Shown here piece after piece: positions 1 through 8,835 of a stretch of 64,000 nt of DNA (positions within the stretch are counted from its first letter, which is position 1; each line of letters begins with the position of its first letter). This stretch comes from Terriglobales bacterium (GTDB lineage Bacteria; Acidobacteriota; Terriglobia; Terriglobales; Acidobacteriaceae): NCBI GenBank assembly GCA_049697355.1, contig JBAVVP010000163.1:1169-65168 (forward strand), given 5' to 3'. The notes beneath the pieces were generated by a model. The model searched no databases, was not told where the DNA came from, and saw only the letters and a list, made by a program, of their open reading frames with translations. The translations under genes and the position numbers were made by a program.

Positions 1-897
1 ATGAAATTGCGTGAAATGTACCGGCACATCCACGCCCAGGTTGGACTTGATCCAACGCGCCAAGCCGCGGAATTCGGTATCGCTGTCGTTCATCGCCGGC
101 ACCACCAGGTAGACGATCTCGGTCCACTTGTTCATCTTCCGCAAGGTGACCAGCGAGTCCAATACCGGCTTCAACTCACCCACGACAACATCTTTGTAGT
201 AAGACTCCGTGAAGGCTTTCAGATCGATCTTGACCGCGTCCATCTTTCCGTACGCCGCTTTCAGCGCCTCCTCTTGCATGTAGCCGTTCGACACGACTAC
301 GCTGCGGACTCCGGCCTCGTGCCCGGCATCGGCCGCATCCATCAGATACTCGCTGAAGATCACCGGCTCGCTGTAGGTGTAGGCAATCGTGGGACAGCTA
401 TTCTGTTTGGCCAGCTCGGCAACCAATTTCGGGGGCGCGTACTCGGCGGGAACCTGCTCCGGACGCACCTGGGAGATGTCCCAGTTCTGGCAAAATTTGC
501 AGTTGACGTTGCAGCCCGCCGTGGCCAATGAGAAAGCCAGTGTCCCCGGCAGGTAGTGGAACAGAGGCTTCTTCTCGACGGGATCGATGTGCGCGGCGCA
601 CACTCGCGAGTGCACCAGCGTGTGGTAGGTCCCTCCGCGATTCTCGCGCACGCCACAATAGCCGCGTTCCCGGTCTCCCACCGTGCATTCGCGCGGACAC
701 AGCTTGCACTTGATCTTCTTGTTTTGAAGTTTCTGGTAGAACTTCGCCTCGACGGTGAATCGCGAATCGTCCTGCTTTTGCGGACTCGCCCACGCCTGGG
801 TCGCGACAGGGAACTGGGCAAGCTCGCAGACGCCGAAAGCTGCTCCCGACGCCAGGGCGCACTTCAAGAACGAACGGCGATCGAGTTCACGCGACAT
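1..897 (-). CDS. Radical SAM enzyme, PflA-activase-like / AmmeMemoRadiSam-type, with N-terminal twin-arginine signal; 3' end runs off the left edge of the window
   Basis: Absent from the ORF track (no in-window stop). My reverse-complement translation from ATG (897-895) is open for all 299 codons to nt 1: MSRELDRRSFLKCALASGAAFGVCELAQFPVATQAWASPQKQ...KCKLCPRECTVGDRERGYCGVRENRGG...HIDPVEKKPLFHYLPGT...ATAGCNVNCKFCQNWDIS...VPVHFTQFH. CNVNCKFC is the CX3CX2C radical-SAM cluster motif. The DPVEKKPLFH block is typical of PflA-like/AmmeMemoRadiSam-type enzymes. DRRSFLK plus AWA-S is a Tat signal with an SPase I site. Confidence 0.8.
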   Translation of the reverse strand, partial: MSRELDRRSFLKCALASGAAFGVCELAQFPVATQAWASPQKQDDSRFTVEAKFYQKLQNKKIKCKLCPRECTVGDRERGYCGVRENRGGTYHTLVHSRVCAAHIDPVEKKPLFHYLPGTLAFSLATAGCNVNCKFCQNWDISQVRPEQVPAEYAPPKLVAELAKQNSCPTIAYTYSEPVIFSEYLMDAADAGHEAGVRSVVVSNGYMQEEALKAAYGKMDAVKIDLKAFTESYYKDVVVGELKPVLDSLVTLRKMNKWTEIVYLVVPAMNDSDTEFRGLARWIKSNLGVDVPVHFTQFH

Positions 898-956
898 GTT
901 GCACTCTCAATCACGCACCCTATCAGCCCGTGGTGCACGTCTAATCGCCGGCCCCA

Positions 957-1010
957 GCGCCTGAAGGCGCCTTCATAACGCGGCCCCTGCGGCACGCCTG
1001 AAGGCGTGCC
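957..1010. repeat. Two adjacent stem-loops sharing the 11-mer GCCTGAAGGCG in the DUF362 / radical-SAM intercistronic spacer
   Basis: GCGCC-TGAA-GGCGC at 957-970 and GGCACGCC-TGAA-GGCGTGCC at 991-1010, read directly from the sequence. No U-tract follows on either strand. Confidence 0.5.
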
Positions 1011-1041
1011 CTGATACGAAACGTATCTTCACCACAGGCTG

Positions 1042-2070
1042 CTATACCTCAACAACCGCTATTCTCCGCGGATCGTTTGTGCCCAGCCGATGCTGCGCGT
1101 CGGCGGCGGTCGCGATGTAGTGTGGCGCTCTTTTATCGCCTTCCAGCGTCTTCAATCCTTTTTCGGCCCGCTTGCGCTCGATGATTTGCCAGCCGGTGTA
1201 ATCGAGCGCGACGGGATCCTGCGAAACGATCAGGGCATTGTTCTTCCAACTGTATTCCGGCTTGTATCCGGGCCCACCTTCGAAGCAGGCCGTGGTCGCG
1301 TCGCAGATGGTCAACCGCATCTTGGTTCTGATTTCCGGCAGCATGTTCAAATCTGCGATATACGGATTGCAGCCGTTGGGGTGGTACTTGTTCGGGTTAT
1401 GAATGACTCCGTACATGTTCTTCAAGGCCATGGTTACGCCGGCGTCGTCATGGTCTTTCAGCACCGGGACATTGATCAGGACATGGCAGCGTTGCGTCAG
1501 GATCTTCGACAACCGGCTGCCCACGCTGCCATACATGGCCAGCTCGGGTTCGTAATCGATGCGATCGGTGCCAAAGCACTGCACGCGGTTTCCGCCCGTC
1601 GCTACATGAAATCCAACATGCTCCAGTTCGTCGCTATCGCGGTCCCAGACCACGATATCGTTCGCCTTGATTCCGGCCTCCTGCAACCGCTCGCAGATGG
1701 CTTCGACGAGTTGCAGGTTGCTGGAGAGTCCGCGTCCTCCAAGCGCATTGACTTTCAGTCCCACTGTCTCGCCCGGATGGACCAGCTTCTTCCACGTCTC
1801 GATCGGATTATCGCGGTCGAAGAAAGACTGCATGGCGCGATCCAGAAGGCTCAGAATCCGGCGCGAATCGACCGTGGCGCCGGCGCCGCGCAGCGCAGCG
1901 TCGTGCGCGACCACAACCCTGGACTTCGCGAGCGCCGTTACTTGTTGTTGCGGTTGTTGTTGTTCTGCTGATGCGAGCCGTTCCAGCCTGCCGCTTGCGC
2001 CCAGGACCGCAGCGCCGGTGAGGCACTTCCTAAGAAAATCCCGCCGACTGGTGCTGCGCGTTGCGCTCAT
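1042..2070 (-). CDS. DUF362-family protein with twin-arginine signal
   Basis: ORF track gives 1042..2160. I moved the start to ATG 2070 (GGAGAA upstream), giving MSATRSTSRRDFLRKCLTGAAVLGA with Tat motif SRRDFLR. The body has DUF362-like blocks as I recall them (GETVGLKVNALGG, VLKDHDDAGVTMALKNMYG). Confidence 0.75.
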   Translation of the reverse strand: MSATRSTSRRDFLRKCLTGAAVLGASGRLERLASAEQQQPQQQVTALAKSRVVVAHDAALRGAGATVDSRRILSLLDRAMQSFFDRDNPIETWKKLVHPGETVGLKVNALGGRGLSSNLQLVEAICERLQEAGIKANDIVVWDRDSDELEHVGFHVATGGNRVQCFGTDRIDYEPELAMYGSVGSRLSKILTQRCHVLINVPVLKDHDDAGVTMALKNMYGVIHNPNKYHPNGCNPYIADLNMLPEIRTKMRLTICDATTACFEGGPGYKPEYSWKNNALIVSQDPVALDYTGWQIIERKRAEKGLKTLEGDKRAPHYIATAADAQHRLGTNDPRRIAVVEV

Positions 2071-2172
2071 AAGGGTTCTCCGGTGAACCCAGGGCCAGCT
2101 CCGAAAGTCCTTAAGGTACCTATACCGCAATCCGTCTGACTTTTCAGTGACGAACAGCACTTCTGGCGATCG

Positions 2173-2670
2173 TCAGCGGGCAAGCCTCGGTTCGATGCCG
2201 CGCCCTAGTTGCAGAAGTGCCTGCTGTGTTTCCGGCGATTCCTCAAAGGCAACGATTCGCACCAGGTAAGCTCCCTTGCGGAAGACCAGGCTCTGGCTGG
2301 ACAAGCGCGCGGCGTCTCCCAGTTGAATCGGTTTCGCATCGACAGCCGGCTCCGATTCAAGAATCTTCTCGGCGCCTTCCGCGTTTCCCATGGCATAGAT
2401 GTCTGCTGTCGCTTCGACCTGGTTCTGGAACTTGTAGTCGGCCGTAGATACTCGCTGCACCCCAGCTTTCAAGTATCGTTCCGCCTCGCCGTCAATGTAC
2501 TTCCAGAGGTCGGCGGCCTCGAAGGTCCGTGTATCTCCGGTCTTCGCCCAGCCCGCGACCGGATTGGACGCGGGGAAAAGGGATGGTGCAGTTCCCGCCT
2601 GACGTTTGCATCCGGCGTTCAACAGCAGCGCGACACCGAGCATGATCGACAGCGCTTCGCGGGCCTTCAT
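2173..2670 (-). CDS. Small lipoprotein of unknown function (165 aa)
   Basis: Internal ATG 2670 of track ORF 2173..3099. It overlaps the stop of the upstream gene as ATGA (2667-2670). MKAREALSIMLGVALLLNAGC carries lipobox LNAGC. No catalytic motif recognised. Confidence 0.7.
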   Translation of the reverse strand: MKAREALSIMLGVALLLNAGCKRQAGTAPSLFPASNPVAGWAKTGDTRTFEAADLWKYIDGEAERYLKAGVQRVSTADYKFQNQVEATADIYAMGNAEGAEKILESEPAVDAKPIQLGDAARLSSQSLVFRKGAYLVRIVAFEESPETQQALLQLGRGIEPRLAR

Positions 2671-4325
2671 CTCGGCCTTTCCTTGTCTTTGTTTTTGCCC
2701 CGGTTCAGCAGAATCTGGTTGGTTCGCGATCGGCTCTCGCCTACGCTGGTCACGTAAACTGCCGGGCGATCCTGAACCGGGCAGGCGTACTCGCAAGCCC
2801 CGCAGCCCACGCAGCGATGCGGATCGACAAACGGTTGTTTGACCGGCTGCAGATGGCCCTCCGCATCGGCGACTTCGGCGGGCTGCAAATAGATGGCCTT
2901 GGGCGATGTCGGACACCACTCCTCGCACACAATGCACGGGGTTGCCATCGCCCACGGCAAACATCGTCCGCGATCCAGGAACGCTGTTCCTAGGCTGATG
3001 GGTTTGGCGTCGCTCGTGACCCGCGCCTCCCAGCCCTTTTCTTTCGCCGTGATCTCCCATATTGCGCCGGTCGGACAAACCTGGGAGCACAGCACGCAAC
3101 TGCTCTCACAGTAGCCAATCCGCGGCACCAAAACCGGCGTCCAGAGACCTTCCAGCCCCGCCTCGTTCAACGCGGGATGCAGCGCGTTGTTGGGACAGAC
3201 TTTCATGCACTCGCCACAGCGTATGCAACGCGACAGAAAGTCCCCTTCGTCCAATGCGCCCGGAGGACGCAGCAATCTCTCGTGGCGCTCGACGGCGAAT
3301 CCGGGCGTGCTGCGCAACAGTGGAACTACGGCTGCCCCGGCCGCCAATCCCGTGAGCACTTTGCGCCTCTGCAGGTTCACACCGATGGACTTTTGGGCGG
3401 GGAAGAACTTGAACTGCAGGCCGTGCTCCGGGCACTCATCAACACAGTTCAGGCAGAGATGACACTCCGCTTGACGCCACGGAACTCCGCCGATCGGATC
3501 ATCGCCGCCCTGGCAGCGCAGCAGGCAGCGATTGCAGTCCTCGCAGTGCTCCGGGCTCTTGACCAGTCCCAGAATCGACCAGCGCGAAACGATGCCGAGC
3601 AGCGCGCCCAGTGGGCAGAGTGCCCGGCACCAGAAACGGGTCACTCGAAAATTCAACGCCAAAAGAAAGATGAAGATGATGCCAAGCCAAATACCCTGGC
3701 GAAAGTACGGCTGTTTGAAGTTGAGCAGCCATCCTCCGAGAAGGAAGTTCAGCACGTTGCCTTCCAGCCCATTCCCCCAACGGCTGTGTTCGAGCACGCG
3801 CAGGCCAGCGCTCACGGCATAGTTCACACCGGGCAGGATAGACAGGCCCAGCGAGCGCACCAGCAACGAGAAGGGATCCAGCCATCCGACGACCCCCGTG
3901 CCCAACACAGCGGCGATTAAGGCCGCGACTAAGAGGTAGTACTTCGTCGTCTGCCAGCGCTTGTAGCGGTTCGATTCCAACAGTTGCTTTCCACGTTTGC
4001 GCTCGGATTTCAGGCTGCTGAAGAAGTGGTGAACGGAGCCCAGTGGACAAATCCAGCCGCAGAAGAAGCGCCCGAGCAACATGGTCGGAAGCAGAACGAC
4101 CAGGCTCCACAACAGGCCGCGGTACAGCGCGCGGCTGGAGAGAGCATTCGACAGCATTACCAAGGGATCGAATTGGAAAAACAACTGCACCGGGTAGGGG
4201 AGCCGAATCGCATTTCCGCCGGCGTGCAGCGATCCGCGAAACTCCGTGCGCAGCAGAAGGAACAAGAACAGGGAGAAGAAAATAATCTGCGAGAGCCAGC
4301 GCCACCTTGTCGGCTTAAGTCGCAC
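2667..4325 (-). CDS. Membrane polyferredoxin, NapH/MauN-like N-half fused to NapG/MauM-like C-half
   Basis: 552 aa; GTG start with AAGGAG 6 nt upstream. The multi-TM N-part has two CX3CP motifs (FFCGWICPLG, FWCRALCPLG) and two ferredoxin motifs (CEDCNRCLLRC, CHLCLNCVDECP). Then comes RRKVLTGLAAGAAVVPLL (Tat-like or anchor segment), followed by CIRCGECMKVCP, CVLCSQVCP, CIVCEEWCP and CVGCGACEYACP. Confidence 0.85.
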   Translation of the reverse strand: MRLKPTRWRWLSQIIFFSLFLFLLLRTEFRGSLHAGGNAIRLPYPVQLFFQFDPLVMLSNALSSRALYRGLLWSLVVLLPTMLLGRFFCGWICPLGSVHHFFSSLKSERKRGKQLLESNRYKRWQTTKYYLLVAALIAAVLGTGVVGWLDPFSLLVRSLGLSILPGVNYAVSAGLRVLEHSRWGNGLEGNVLNFLLGGWLLNFKQPYFRQGIWLGIIFIFLLALNFRVTRFWCRALCPLGALLGIVSRWSILGLVKSPEHCEDCNRCLLRCQGGDDPIGGVPWRQAECHLCLNCVDECPEHGLQFKFFPAQKSIGVNLQRRKVLTGLAAGAAVVPLLRSTPGFAVERHERLLRPPGALDEGDFLSRCIRCGECMKVCPNNALHPALNEAGLEGLWTPVLVPRIGYCESSCVLCSQVCPTGAIWEITAKEKGWEARVTSDAKPISLGTAFLDRGRCLPWAMATPCIVCEEWCPTSPKAIYLQPAEVADAEGHLQPVKQPFVDPHRCVGCGACEYACPVQDRPAVYVTSVGESRSRTNQILLNRGKNKDKERPR

Positions 4326-4709
4326 CCCGTACTCCTTGCCTCTCCACGCAGTGGATCGGCGCGGCGCACACCAAACCCTCGGTGCGTTCTGAGCGCCTGG
4401 CGCTGCCCACCCAATGTTCTGCCAAGCGCCTTCCGCTTTCTGTGACCAAGATCACTTGTTATGGCCCGCTGGGGCCGAGCGCAATCTGTGCGCTTCCCAC
4501 GTGATGGCATCAACAACAGTCAGAGTAGAAGGGGGAGGGCCTGGATCGCTGCGTCACAGCCATGATTGACGGGGGTCACTGCGCGCCGACCTGGACAGGA
4601 GTAGGGTCAAACTGGATTTGTTTACTCCGTTGCGGCCGTTTCCAAGTAAGCAGCTGGCTTGGTGGTGAACCAGAAAGTTGCCGGACGGACACCAGGAGGG
4701 GACAAGCCC

Positions 4710-6398
4710 ATGAGTGTTCGGCCCTCATACGAGCAACTCAACACGAATTTCGACTGGGCGAATGCTGAGCGCGAACTAGGCTATCGGCCGCGCGATTCGA
4801 TCAACATCGGTTGGATGTGCAGCGACCGCCTGTGCCAGCTGGGGATGGCCGAGAAGCTGGCGCTGCTCTGGGAAGACTATCAGGGCAACCAGAAGCGCTT
4901 CACCTACAACGATCTTCGTGTCTACTCCAACACCATCGCCCATTTCCTGGCCGGCCTGGGAATTCTCCCCGGCGAGCGGGTATGCCTCTTTTTAGACCGG
5001 GTACCCGAGTTGTACATCGGATTTCTGGGCATTCTGAAGATGGGCGCGGTGGCCCAGCCGCTGTTTTCGGCTTTCGGAGACGAATCTCTGTGTGTCCGGC
5101 TCAAAGACGCCGGGACGGCAGCGATCATTACCCAGAAGAAACATCTCCTTAAGGTCCGCAAGATCCGGGAGCAACTCCCGAACTTGCGGCACTTCATCGT
5201 GGTGGATGCGCCCCAGGCGTCTCTCCAGGAACGCGAGACTGCCTTCGCGATGGAACAATCGCCGCCCGTCGAGCACTTCCCAATCTACCCGACCAAGGCC
5301 GAATCTCCATCGGTTCTGCACTACACCTCTGGCACCACGGGCCAGCCTAAGGGTGCGCAGCACGTTCACTACTCGATCGTTTCGCAGTATCTCACCGCGA
5401 AATGGGTCCTCGATTTTCAGCCGGACGACATTTACTGGTGCAACGCCGACCCGGGTTGGGTCACCGGTACGTCCTACGGCATCATCGGTCCCTGGGCGAA
5501 CGGAATTACACAAGCGGTTCTGGACTCCGGTTTCAACGCGGAGAAATGGTACGAGTTCATCGAGAAGTACCACGTTACCGTCTGGTATTCGGCGCCGACT
5601 GCGATCCGCCTGCTCATGAAGGAGGGAGCGGAAATCATCCGCAAGCATGATCTCTCCAGCTTGCGGCATCTAGCCAGTGTGGGCGAGCCGCTCAACCCCG
5701 AGGCCGTGATCTGGTCGAGAGAAGTCTTCGGGAAACCGTTCCACGACACGTTCTGGCAGACCGAAACCGGCTGCATCGTAATTGCGAACTTTCCCGGGAT
5801 GCAAATCAAACCCGGCTCGATGGGCAAGCCGTTTCCGGGAATCACCGCAACCGTGCTGGATCCAAGAACCTACGAACCGGCCAACGCAGGTCTGATTGCG
5901 CTGCGCCCGGGCTGGCCGTCGCAGATTCGCGGTTATTGGAACAATCCCGCCGGATACCACGCCAAATTCAGGAATGGATGGTACCTCTGTGGCGACCGTG
6001 CCTCCATCGACACGGACGGCTATTTCTGGTTCATGGGACGCGATGACGACGTCATCAATACCGGCGGGCACCTGGTCGGCCCCTTCGAAGTCGAATCGGC
6101 CCTGCTGGGATGTCCGGCTGTCGCTGAGTCTGCCGCCGTTGCTAAACCTGACCCTGTCAACATGGAAGTTGTGAAAGCGTACGTGACTGTAAAGCAAGGT
6201 TTTCAACCATCCGACGACCTTGAACTGGAAATCATGAACCATATTCGCAAGCGGTTGTCGCCGCTGGCCATGCCCCAGGAAATCGAGTTCGTCGACTCGT
6301 TGCCTAAGACGCGCAGCGGCAAAATCGTGCGCCGCATCCTACGCTGCAAGGAGTTCCATGAGCCCGTGGGCGATCTTTCCACCATCATGGACGACTAA
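4710..6398 (+). CDS. AMP-forming adenylating ligase, AcsA-like (acyl-CoA or acyl-ACP synthetase)
   Basis: Track ORF 4659..6398; ATG 4710 is preceded by GGAGGGG. Adenylate-forming motifs are present: YTSGTTGQPKG, GEPLNPE, WQTETG, GDRASIDTDGYFWFMGRDDDVINTGGHLVGPFEVESAL, PKTRSGKIVRR. It is collinear with Bacillus-type AcsA as I recall it. Confidence 0.85.
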   Translation: MSVRPSYEQLNTNFDWANAERELGYRPRDSINIGWMCSDRLCQLGMAEKLALLWEDYQGNQKRFTYNDLRVYSNTIAHFLAGLGILPGERVCLFLDRVPELYIGFLGILKMGAVAQPLFSAFGDESLCVRLKDAGTAAIITQKKHLLKVRKIREQLPNLRHFIVVDAPQASLQERETAFAMEQSPPVEHFPIYPTKAESPSVLHYTSGTTGQPKGAQHVHYSIVSQYLTAKWVLDFQPDDIYWCNADPGWVTGTSYGIIGPWANGITQAVLDSGFNAEKWYEFIEKYHVTVWYSAPTAIRLLMKEGAEIIRKHDLSSLRHLASVGEPLNPEAVIWSREVFGKPFHDTFWQTETGCIVIANFPGMQIKPGSMGKPFPGITATVLDPRTYEPANAGLIALRPGWPSQIRGYWNNPAGYHAKFRNGWYLCGDRASIDTDGYFWFMGRDDDVINTGGHLVGPFEVESALLGCPAVAESAAVAKPDPVNMEVVKAYVTVKQGFQPSDDLELEIMNHIRKRLSPLAMPQEIEFVDSLPKTRSGKIVRRILRCKEFHEPVGDLSTIMDD

Positions 6399-6411
6399 GC
6401 CGAGGCCCGTT

Positions 6412-6678
6412 ATGGACGAAATCACGCAAGTAGTTCGCAATTACATAATGCGGGAATACCTGGAAGAAGGTGACGACCGAACCATTACCGAGACAACTCC
6501 ACTGATTTCTGGTGGCATTGTGGATTCGTTTTCCATGGTATCTCTGCTTCGTTTTCTGGAGAAGAAGTACTCGATTGACATTCCCGACGAATGCGCCACC
6601 CCCGAAGCTTTCGATACCGTCGAGCGTATCGCCGGACTGGTGCGACGTTTCCAGAAGGCTGAAGTCATCAAGGGCTAG
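6412..6678 (+). CDS. Stand-alone acyl carrier protein-like protein (88 aa)
   Basis: Track ORF 6358..6678, ATG at 6412: MDEITQVVRNYIMREYL...ISGGIVDSFSMVSLLRFLE. Small and acidic, with a DS(F) serine in the usual phosphopantetheine-attachment context. Confidence 0.75.
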   Translation: MDEITQVVRNYIMREYLEEGDDRTITETTPLISGGIVDSFSMVSLLRFLEKKYSIDIPDECATPEAFDTVERIAGLVRRFQKAEVIKG

Positions 6679-6749
6679 GGTGTGCCCGCCGCCGGACCCG
6701 GTTTGGCTTGGGCACCTACTGAAGAAAATCCTATTACGCGAGGCGCGTC

Positions 6750-7997
6750 ATGGCGTTTGCCGATGCAGTTCGCCACCGCTATCAGACCGATGTCGAGGGA
6801 ATCAAAAACGCAGGCCTGTTCAAAGAGGAAAGGTATATCCACTCGCCGCAGTCCTCGGAAATTGAGGTGGAGTTCCCGGTTGGCTCGGCAATCAGGAAGT
6901 GCATCAATGTTTGCGCGAACAACTACCTCGGACTCTCCAGCCATCCCGAGGTCATCGCCGCGGCGCACGCAGGCTTGGACGCACGGGGCTACGGCATGTC
7001 CTCAGTGCGTTTTATCTGTGGTACGCAGGATATCCACCGCGAGTTAGAGAATCGCCTGACCGCGTTCCTCGGTACCGAGGATACCTTGCTGTTCCCCTCC
7101 TGCATGGACGCAAATGCCGGCTTCTTCGAGGCCTGCCTGAATGAGCAGGATGTCATGATCGCCGATCGGCTCGTTCACGCCTCCATCGTGGATGGAATGC
7201 GTCTGTGCAAGGCGATGCAAGACACCTACAAGCACTCCGATATGGGGCATCTTGCGGAGAAGCTGCAAGAACACCAGGACAAGCGGTCGCGCATAGTGAT
7301 TACGGACGGCGTGTTCTCGATGGATGGCGATACCGCCAAGCTGGCTGACATCGTCGACCTGGCCGAGAAATACAACGCCATGGTGTTCGTGGATGACTCG
7401 CACGCCACCGGCTTCATGGGCAAAACCGGACGTGGGACGCACGAGCACTGCGGCGTGTTCGGCAAGATCGATGTCATCACCACGACGCTGGGAAAGGCGT
7501 TGGGCGGTGCTTCCGGAGGCTGCGTCAGCGGCCGTCGCGAACTGGTGGACATGTGCCGGCAGCGAGCGCGTCCTTACCTGTTTTCCAATGCCGTGGCGCC
7601 GGTGATCGTGGCGGGTGCGCTCAAGGTACTGGACCTAATCAGCGCCTCCACCGATCGTCGCGACAAACTGGAATGGAACGCGAGGTATTGGCGCGGCTTG
7701 CTCAAAGACGCTGGTTTCGATCTGAAGGAAGGGGATACCCCGATTGTGCCGGTCATGCTCTACGACGCCAAACTGGCGCAAGACTTTGCCCGCGATCTCT
7801 TTGACGAGGGCGTGTACGCCGTTGGGTTCTTCTTTCCGGTCGTGCCGAAAGGGCAAGCCCGGATTCGCACGCAACTGTCGGCGGCTCACGATAAACACCA
7901 TCTGGACGCCGCCATCGAGGGTTTCAAAAGAGTAGGGAAAAAACACGGCATTCTAGGTTTGGGAAAAAAGGAACTCATGGCGAGAGCCGTTGCGTAA
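6750..7997 (+). CDS. PLP-dependent alpha-oxoamine synthase, glycine C-acetyltransferase (Kbl)-like
   Basis: 415 aa; collinear with E. coli Kbl as I recall it (GLFKEER, NNYLGL, VRFICGTQD, DGVFSMDGD, VDDSHATGF, TLGKALGG with PLP lysine, RPYLFSN, PKGQARIRTQLSAAH). Confidence 0.9.
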   Translation: MAFADAVRHRYQTDVEGIKNAGLFKEERYIHSPQSSEIEVEFPVGSAIRKCINVCANNYLGLSSHPEVIAAAHAGLDARGYGMSSVRFICGTQDIHRELENRLTAFLGTEDTLLFPSCMDANAGFFEACLNEQDVMIADRLVHASIVDGMRLCKAMQDTYKHSDMGHLAEKLQEHQDKRSRIVITDGVFSMDGDTAKLADIVDLAEKYNAMVFVDDSHATGFMGKTGRGTHEHCGVFGKIDVITTTLGKALGGASGGCVSGRRELVDMCRQRARPYLFSNAVAPVIVAGALKVLDLISASTDRRDKLEWNARYWRGLLKDAGFDLKEGDTPIVPVMLYDAKLAQDFARDLFDEGVYAVGFFFPVVPKGQARIRTQLSAAHDKHHLDAAIEGFKRVGKKHGILGLGKKELMARAVA

Positions 7998-8093
7998 TCG
8001 GCGGATCATCTATTGATGAGAGCAGCCGAGTGCCGGTGCCGAGTTCATTGGGCAGTCAGCTCCGTGACGATTTGAGGAGGAAACGGAGGTCGT

Positions 8094-8276
8094 ATGCTCT
8101 GTGCAGAGCTTGAGGAACTGGAAGCGGAATTCGATGACATTCTTACCGCGCTCGAGAATCCGTACCTGACCGAGCGGGAAAAACGCTCTCTGCAGGCCGC
8201 GTATTCCCGGCTCAGTCACACCATCAAGGATCACCAGAAGCATGGTCACGATGGTGGCCCCTGCTTTGAAGAATAG
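8094..8276 (+). CDS. Small hypothetical protein (60 aa)
   Basis: GGAGG lies 5 nt upstream of the ATG. Acidic helical N-half and His-rich tail (HQKHGHDGG). No family recognised. Confidence 0.4.
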   Translation: MLCAELEELEAEFDDILTALENPYLTEREKRSLQAAYSRLSHTIKDHQKHGHDGGPCFEE

Positions 8277-8343
8277 CGGACTCTCCACTCGCATGAGGAG
8301 CGCTCCTCGTGCTTAACACTTTCATGAACGTAAAGGAGAAGTT

Positions 8344-8835
8344 ATGACAACCGCGACTCTGAAAGCAACCAAGGTCTTCAGCTATCTCCGACCCGAGGAG
8401 ATCGATTTCCTCAGTAATTACGCCAGCACCGAACAATACAAAGCCGGCGCAATCGTCTACCGCAAAGGGCAGCCCGCCGCCCGTGCGTACGTTTTACTCG
8501 AAGGGGAAGTCGTACTCCGCGCTCCCACTCCAGCGGGTCACGGCATTGTCATCGAAGAAGTGGGTCCCGGTACGATGATCGGGGCGAGCGTGCTGTTGGG
8601 GGAAACCTATATGGTGACGGCCCAGTGTGTCACCGACTGCAAGATCATGACTCTCGGCAAAACGGCCCTGGAGCGGATCGTGGACGCCAATCCGCAAATG
8701 GGATTGGTCATTGAGAAGTACCTGGCTGAGCATTACTACCAGAGAAGTCTCGACCTCATGCACATGCTGGAAGGCCTGATACGGGGAGAGCCGCCGGAGG
8801 AGCTGAAGCGGGGAGGACCTCTGCCGATCGTGTGA
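8344..8835 (+). CDS. Cyclic-nucleotide-binding (CAP effector) domain protein without output domain
   Basis: 163 aa with AAAGGAGAAG RBS. cNMP-binding pattern (YKAGAIVYRKGQPAARAYVLLEGEVVL...GPGTMIGASVLLGE). No HTH follows. Confidence 0.75.
   Translation: MTTATLKATKVFSYLRPEEIDFLSNYASTEQYKAGAIVYRKGQPAARAYVLLEGEVVLRAPTPAGHGIVIEEVGPGTMIGASVLLGETYMVTAQCVTDCKIMTLGKTALERIVDANPQMGLVIEKYLAEHYYQRSLDLMHMLEGLIRGEPPEELKRGGPLPIV

Follow-up and report, generated by a model that had tools for sequence, protein, structure and literature searches.

A conserved ligase, carrier protein and Kbl-type synthase module in Acidobacteriota and other phyla: a candidate for Kbl chemistry on a private carrier

The closest described parallel to the gene arrangement examined here is the AasR/AcpR/SPT system of Caulobacter crescentus, of Escherichia coli BL21(DE3) and of other 'Rhodobacteria', in which a ligase acylates only its own acyl carrier protein (ACP) and the synthase prefers acyl-AcpR as its substrate (PMC9386255). 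The subject of this work is a trio of genes encoding an AcsA-type adenylate-forming ligase, a small carrier protein and a Kbl-type alpha-oxoamine synthase (AOS), located at positions 4,710 to 7,997 of a 64,000-nucleotide stretch of DNA (hereafter, the window) from a Terriglobales (Acidobacteriota) metagenome-assembled genome (MAG; 570 contigs, 96% complete). Both systems comprise an adenylating ligase, a small ACP and an alpha-oxoamine synthase that are clustered and co-occur, and AasR/AcpR/SPT constitutes a functional precedent that supports a ligase feeding the AOS of the module through its own ACP. Full-text searches of the literature returned no description of this combination of ligase, carrier and Kbl genes.

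The individual components nonetheless differ from their AasR/AcpR/SPT counterparts in E. coli BL21. The module ligase is 22% identical to AasR (50 bits), which is FAAL-like, whereas the module ligase is of the Acs type and presents an acetate pocket. The module carrier yields no BLASTP alignment to AcpR, and the module AOS, 31% identical to Spt, is of the Kbl type (glycine and a C2 unit). The module also lacks CerR and ceramide synthase, and no lipid product is expected from it. Because its parts are not homologous to AasR/AcpR/SPT at the family level, the unit appears to be an independently assembled variant of the ligase, ACP and AOS design operating on a C2 unit, and not a sphingolipid pathway.

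Other described systems resemble single components of the module. As in the Tdh-Kbl pathway (E. coli kbl-tdh; structure 1fc4), the module AOS passes the Kbl model and keeps the catalytic residues, and tdh is present in the genome; it differs in falling within a separate clade and in being linked to ACP and ligase genes, with tdh on another contig. Canonical Kbl enzymes use free CoA as their partner. The short AcsA of the Bacillus subtilis type (NF003313; structure 9g79) shares its length, acetate pocket and A10 lysine with the module ligase, which departs from it at two positions of the A8 region, barely passes the NF003313 model and invariably precedes an ACP gene. Finally, the predicted fold of the module carrier is nearest to those of PigG and PltL, two carriers onto which free-standing adenylating enzymes load their substrate directly. 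The PigI/PigG and PltF/PltL pairs differ from the module in loading proline for pyrrole antibiotics, with enzymes from other ANL subfamilies.

Layout, linkage and distribution of the module

The three module genes are intact and co-directional, with the coordinates and the intergenic gaps of 13 bp and 71 bp already reported in an earlier interpretation of the window made from its letters and predicted open reading frames (ORFs; hereafter, the sequence-only reading). The ligase start codon is directly preceded by AGGAGGGG.

4710..6398, + strand: AcsA-type adenylate-forming ligase, 562 aa; ATG start at 4710, stop at 6398; Pfam AMP-binding and AMP-binding_C domains
6412..6678, + strand: carrier protein (ACP), 88 aa; predicted phosphopantetheine-site Ser39 within GIVDSFSM
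6750..7997, + strand: Kbl-type, pyridoxal phosphate (PLP)-dependent AOS, 415 aa; TTTLGKALGGASGG; PLP-lysine block TLGKALGG

Public genomes, one per species, were scanned with an alignment of the carrier, and gene neighborhoods were compared in the best 80 loci. The counts obtained across these relatives are not independent, and most of the genomes are MAGs, with absences and taxonomic labels being provisional. The carrier was found in at least 588 species genomes, and the module is thus spread over hundreds of species, most of them uncultured. The 80 loci comprise five Acidobacteriota classes (Terriglobia, Thermoanaerobaculia, Holophagae, Vicinamibacteria and Aminicenantes) and members of the Gemmatimonadota, Fibrobacterota, Zixibacteria, Calditrichota, Ignavibacteriota, Eisenbacteria and Myxococcota, for about eight phyla in all, as well as one locus from a bin labelled Alphaproteobacteria. 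The ligase-carrier-AOS order is constant in all of them wherever the contig reaches. Compared with the window proteins, the ligases are 68-97% identical, the carriers 64-97% and the AOSs 70-99%.

Co-inheritance is also evident at closer range. Within the genus of the window, the same seven of 25 genomes encode the carrier (76-95% identity) together with the Kbl-type AOS, the short ligase and a 60-aa ORF described below, and one of the seven has two copies of the module. The flanking genes vary among these genomes while the module itself stays intact, and the other 18 genomes contain only a BioF/Kbl paralog and, in most cases, a long Acs. Ligase, carrier and AOS have been gained and lost together. 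In an evenly drawn sample of 201 Acidobacteriota genomes, the carrier was detected in 19, adjoining a Kbl-type AOS in every case (19/19); a module-type ligase (at least 62% identity) is present in 16 of these, and in one more the locus is cut by the end of the contig. The linkage of the trio is far beyond chance, and the suggestion of the sequence-only reading that it forms a dedicated unit is borne out by both the constant order across phyla and the shared presence within the genus.

Some loci depart from the compact arrangement. In one Acidobacteriota family (L130-L132; genomes G159, G224 and G098), the ligase gene lies more than 30 kb away or on another contig and is still present, and the carrier and module AOS genes stand directly before, or at most about 5 kb from, a canonical kbl. 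In one genome of the genus of the window, an insertion of about 1.5 kb separates the carrier and AOS genes (L032; G017:C3, 10242-11744). At three loci (L038, G022:C150; L076; L115) the ligase and/or the AOS is split into several frames, and these may be decaying copies or MAG assembly errors.

Sequence features of the module proteins and the rest of the genome

The ligase scores 741.6 bits against the NCBIfam acetate--CoA ligase model NF003313, a marginal pass over the cut-off of 729, and 484.5 bits against TIGR02188, under the cut-off of 725. Its closest relative of solved structure is a 572-aa AcsA (PDB 9g79; 555 bits). The four acetate-pocket residues of Salmonella enterica Acs (V310, T311, V386 and W414), including the pocket Trp that limits chain length (W414), are kept in 58 of 59 module ligases, that of the window among them; the residue beside this Trp is Phe in the ligase (W413 in S. 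enterica). The acyl group is hence most likely short, in agreement with the short-chain carboxylate put forward in the sequence-only reading, which had also called for an inspection of these residues.

The same reading had described all the core motifs of the ligase as intact. This holds for A3, A5 and A10, which are conserved in the module ligases, but not for A8, which reads GGHLVG in the window protein and places Leu at the position of S. enterica Acs R526. This Leu is present in 58 of 59 module ligases, and S523 is replaced by Gly in all of them. E. coli Acs, 9g79 and 8rpk, by comparison, retain S-G-x-R at this site and all keep the Arg. The A8 Arg, required for the CoA-dependent half-reaction and its normal kinetics, contacts the phosphate of the acyl-adenylate in the thioester-forming state, which it stabilizes, and its replacement in another Acs rendered the enzyme unsaturable with CoA or lowered kcat 130-326-fold (PMC10455477). 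The loss of S. enterica Acs R191 was also considered as an argument against the use of CoA and was withdrawn, because the short B. subtilis type of AcsA likewise differs from long Acs in the loop concerned, where the alignment is unreliable.

The carrier has no match in Pfam, including PP-binding at E <= 0.01, and only weak, sub-threshold matches to the NCBIfam ACP models. Its AF2 model (predicted local distance difference test, pLDDT, 87.3) has a carrier fold with helices at residues 3-16, 39-53 and 70-87 and places Ser39, the DSF serine noted in the sequence-only reading, at the start of helix II. Foldseek returned PigG and PltL as top matches for this model (TM 0.75-0.86). The sequence-only reading would have been refuted by a carrier frame lacking conservation, together with housekeeping enzymes lacking linkage in relatives; instead, the frame shows nonsynonymous to synonymous rate ratios (dN/dS) of 0.06-0.15, linkage to both enzymes across phyla and 27 invariant columns in 38 sequences from about eight phyla.

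A gene for an AcpS-type phosphopantetheinyl transferase (Pfam ACPS) is located immediately 5' of the ligase gene in 51 of the best 80 loci. It is not found at the locus in the clade of the window (L044-L062), and the genome of the window encodes a single AcpS (35% identical). In the lineage of the window, a dedicated AcpS would have been lost, so that the housekeeping AcpS would have to arm the carrier, and the 60-aa protein with its Cys and His residues would have been gained. Several Terriglobia loci (L063-L079 and L085; approximately 2680-3790) also present a gene for a tandem-domain universal stress protein (Usp) 5' of acpS.

The description of the third gene as very close to Kbl is confirmed by model scores. 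The AOS reaches 581.9 bits against TIGR01822 (Kbl; cut-off 493) and 578.6 bits against NF005394 (Kbl; cut-off 460), aligns to the E. coli Kbl structure 1fc4 with 476 bits and is approximately 53-56% identical to E. coli Kbl. Nine residues of the E. coli enzyme (N50, H136, S185, D210, H213, T241, K244, S274 and R368) occur unchanged in all 29 module AOSs compared. The module enzymes also share fixed, clade-specific changes, which include N135V, adjoining the PLP-stacking His136, as well as F112M, F309W, L298R and L264C.

A maximum-likelihood tree was inferred for 29 module AOSs together with outgroups and 20 unlinked Kbls (E. coli Kbl and 19 of the phylum sample, two of these rows being unreliable). 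All the module AOSs form one clade (support 99/95) with a stem length of 0.36 and very short internal branches. In this placement, of a kind proposed in the sequence-only reading, the clade is nested within Kbl and set apart from the canonical enzymes of the phylum, many of whose genes adjoin tdh. Its branching does not track phylum, the module AOSs of a Zixibacteria (L118) and an Ignavibacteriales (L119) genome being near-identical (branch lengths 0.015 and 0), and this disagreement suggests horizontal transfer, recent in the case of this pair, or binning error.

The remainder of the genome supplies a metabolic context for these enzymes. The absence of tdh from the window, pointed out in the sequence-only reading, extends to its whole contig, but the gene is present on contig C199 (477.6 bits; cut-off 458). 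A second AOS, approximately 43% identical to that of the module, is encoded on contig C543, and each of the 40 relatives searched has one. The copies of G026 and G017 (the genus of the window), which are complete, pass the TIGR01825 BioF/Kbl family model and NF005394 (Kbl), and in a sister family (L150; G026:C3, 656-2910) the TIGR01825 gene begins 23 bp after tdh and also passes the bioF cut-off. It is probably a bifunctional BioF/Kbl of the Thermus type, serving as the housekeeping Kbl of the order. With tdh and this tdh-associated paralog encoded elsewhere, the CoA-dependent route is covered and the trio would be additional to it. No long-type Acs was found in the genome of the window, in which ackA is present. 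The sequence-only reading had overlooked tdh and the BioF/Kbl paralog, together with the A8 change, the AcpS of most relatives and the fourth small gene.

Proposed function and competing explanations

We propose, with moderate confidence, that the module substitutes a private carrier protein for CoA in the Kbl reaction of acetate and glycine. The ligase would adenylate acetate and then acetylate the phosphopantetheine arm of the 88-aa carrier, in place of or in preference to free CoA, and the Kbl-type synthase would then interconvert acetyl-S-carrier and glycine with 2-amino-3-oxobutanoate and holo-carrier. The Tdh encoded elsewhere in the genome could in turn interconvert 2-amino-3-oxobutanoate and threonine, so that acetate, glycine and threonine would be linked through a protein-bound acetyl group separate from the acetyl-CoA pool. 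In the direction of synthesis, acetate, glycine and ATP would yield aminoketobutyrate or threonine; in that of breakdown, threonine would yield glycine and acetyl-carrier, and reversal of the ligase would then generate acetate and ATP. That the acyl group is acetyl, that the carrier both accepts and donates it and that Tdh connects to the reaction are inferences from what was observed, namely which genes are present, how far they are conserved, how they co-occur, which families they belong to and which residues line their active sites.

Several observations weigh against this proposal. The ligase could still use CoA, since the module ligases retain F163, R194 and R584, with which S. enterica Acs contacts the nucleotide of CoA, and it may still make acetyl-CoA, as it continues to pass the AcsA equivalog cut-off. 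No other Acs was found in four of the seven module genomes of the genus, and two genomes of the phylum sample (G214, L154, contig C24, 93% complete; G235, L155, contig C17, 99% complete) have the carrier and AOS with no module-type ligase in the assembly. A Tdh-like gene (34% identity) stands beside the module in only one of the 80 loci, and the carrier route offers no obvious advantage over the route through CoA.

All but the last two of these points, along with the pass of the Kbl equivalog cut-off by the AOS, would fit an ordinary housekeeping role, with a normal acetyl-CoA synthetase and a CoA-dependent Kbl co-transcribed with a carrier of separate or regulatory function. We consider this explanation, the main rival to our proposal, rather unlikely, given that the carrier, with its 27 invariant columns, is always placed between the two enzymes across some eight phyla, that a dedicated AcpS stands in the operon at most of the loci compared and that the three genes have been gained and lost jointly. 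The separate clade of the AOS, with substitutions fixed beside the catalytic His, the Leu in place of the A8 Arg of the ligase and the existence of a separate, tdh-linked BioF/Kbl argue in the same direction.

As the next rival, the same architecture could also operate on another small acyl group, such as propionate or glycolate, and/or another amino acid, leading to a specialized aminoketone that would serve as a signal or, like aminoacetone, as a pyrazine-type precursor. Aminoacetone itself, a known pyrazine precursor, arises by the spontaneous decarboxylation of 2-amino-3-oxobutanoate (PMC9814548), the product expected of the module. The changes N135V, F112M, F309W and L298R in the AOS and the Phe next to the pocket Trp in the ligase could alter substrate use, and the patchy distribution of the module, resembling horizontal transfer, would suit a specialized pathway. 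Such a product is unlikely, however, as the four acetate-pocket residues and all the substrate and PLP residues of Kbl are unchanged, and the 80 loci share no genes for tailoring, export or regulation alongside the module. It is further disfavored by identities of 70-80% across phyla, which are unusual for secondary metabolism and look like those of core metabolism.

The resemblance to AasR/AcpR/SPT and the presence of a CMAS-family gene within a few kb, both in the window and at the module loci of certain close relatives, would favor a pathway to sphingolipids or long-chain bases, in which the AOS would act as an analogue of Spt, possibly with the nearby CFA synthase. This explanation is highly improbable and already largely refuted by the protein sequences. 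The AOS belongs to the Kbl clade with all Kbl catalytic residues, and reaches 311 bits against the best Spt model, for which the cut-off is 640; the ligase keeps the Trp that restricts the pocket to acetate, in addition to the low identity to AasR, the lack of similarity between the carriers and the low identity to Spt noted above. No CerR or bCerS, and more generally no reductase or N-acyltransferase, was found within about 5 kb of the module, which upholds what the sequence-only reading had stated about the surroundings. Its suggestions of a lipid base as product and of the CFA-synthase homologue as a hint to lipid chemistry fared differently: a CMAS gene is near the module in four of the 19 closest-clade loci, L034 and L042 likewise having one, and the 61 others have none nearby; its association with the module was rejected, being confined to the closest relatives.

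A variant of our proposal concerns the direction of flux. The module could support a CoA-independent, energy-conserving fermentation of threonine, in which Tdh would be followed by the specialized Kbl acting with holo-carrier and by reversal of the ligase, converting acetyl-carrier, AMP and PPi into acetate and ATP. A private carrier would allow a ratio of acetyl to thiol high enough for ATP synthesis, independently of the acetyl-CoA pool. The adjacency to canonical kbl in some lineages, together with anaerobic habitats, makes this catabolic, ATP-yielding direction conceivable. We regard the fermentation scheme as a tentative and rather improbable extension; if true, it would represent a new kind of substrate-level phosphorylation using a carrier protein.

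Automatic annotation labels the three proteins as an ordinary AcsA, ACP and Kbl, and the module has thus been hidden in hundreds of genomes from abundant bacteria of soil, peat and sediment. If the carrier is truly the acceptor and donor of acetyl groups on a private route, the module would be the first known case of a C2 reaction of central metabolism moved from CoA to a private carrier protein, and a second, independently assembled instance of the ligase, ACP and alpha-oxoamine synthase design. Models of metabolism in the Acidobacteriota and neighboring phyla would need correction as to how acetate, glycine and threonine flow, and biocatalysis could draw on an ACP-dependent Kbl and an acetate:ACP ligase of natural origin.

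A fourth gene, an upstream motif and the flanking genes

Two further features of the locus are new findings for this window, a fourth module gene restricted to the Terriglobia, identified by its intact frame in relatives and its co-occurrence with the module, and a DNA motif identified in an alignment of upstream regions.

8094..8276, + strand: 60-aa helical-hairpin protein, fourth module gene in Terriglobia only
4553..4579, + strand: upstream DNA motif GTCAC-N9-TGAC-N3-GTCAC (GTCACAGCCATGATTGACGGGGGTCAC), putative operator or promoter element

The frame of the fourth gene is intact in every Terriglobia-type locus, and its 41 distinct protein sequences are all exactly 60 aa long, with invariant Cys3, His47, His52 and Cys57 and dN/dS values of 0.07-0.36. 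The gene is present in exactly the same seven of 41 genomes as the module and belongs to the module unit. Although no family or fold match was returned by Pfam, NCBIfam or Foldseek, AF2 predicts a confident helical hairpin (pLDDT 86.7) in which the ends meet and bring the Cys and His residues together, and the protein is possibly metal-binding. A 94-aa ORF on the opposite strand (8010-8294) was rejected as a gene because its frame carries stops in relatives.

The upstream motif is located 131 nt 5' of the ligase start codon. The motif recurs in 19 Terriglobia loci, each time upstream of the module operon, where approximately 0.1 would be expected by chance. In three of these (at least L065, L070 and L078) it stands before the Usp gene that precedes acpS, and this gene is possibly part of the operon there. 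The genome of the window contains six sites for the motif and none for a reversed-pattern control, and these six sites may define a small regulon. The five sites outside the module lie on contigs C43, C79, C276, C282 and C432 (L156, L157 and L159-L161), and the genes that follow them encode a bacterioferritin, a protein of the DAHP/KDO8P-synthase family, a PEP-CTERM protein, an outer-membrane beta-barrel protein and a 161-aa cNMP-binding protein.

No riboswitch or known RNA was detected upstream of the module, an Rfam search of positions 4200-8400 returning only chance-like matches, and no convincing sigma-70 promoters or terminators were found at the locus. The leader presents four weak pairs only as evidence of conserved RNA structure and is not conserved beyond the close clade.

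None of the genes flanking the module is related to lipid-base chemistry. A divergent cluster upstream, on the opposite strand (1-4325), comprises genes for a radical-SAM protein bearing a TAT signal, for DUF362 and DUF6599 proteins and for a ferredoxin-like protein with multiple 4Fe-4S clusters, and its synteny is limited to the closest relatives (L038, L044 and L047). Downstream, the module is followed by genes for a cNMP-binding protein, a CMAS-family methyltransferase, an Hsp20 protein and a dCache protein. The cNMP-binding protein (8344-8835, + strand) has 163 aa and consists of that domain alone, with no DNA-binding domain, and its gene is also located 3' of the module in the closest relatives of the window. 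The 161-aa cNMP-binding protein encoded on contig C276 (L159:310-795), with the motif approximately 36 bp upstream of its gene, belongs to the same domain family.

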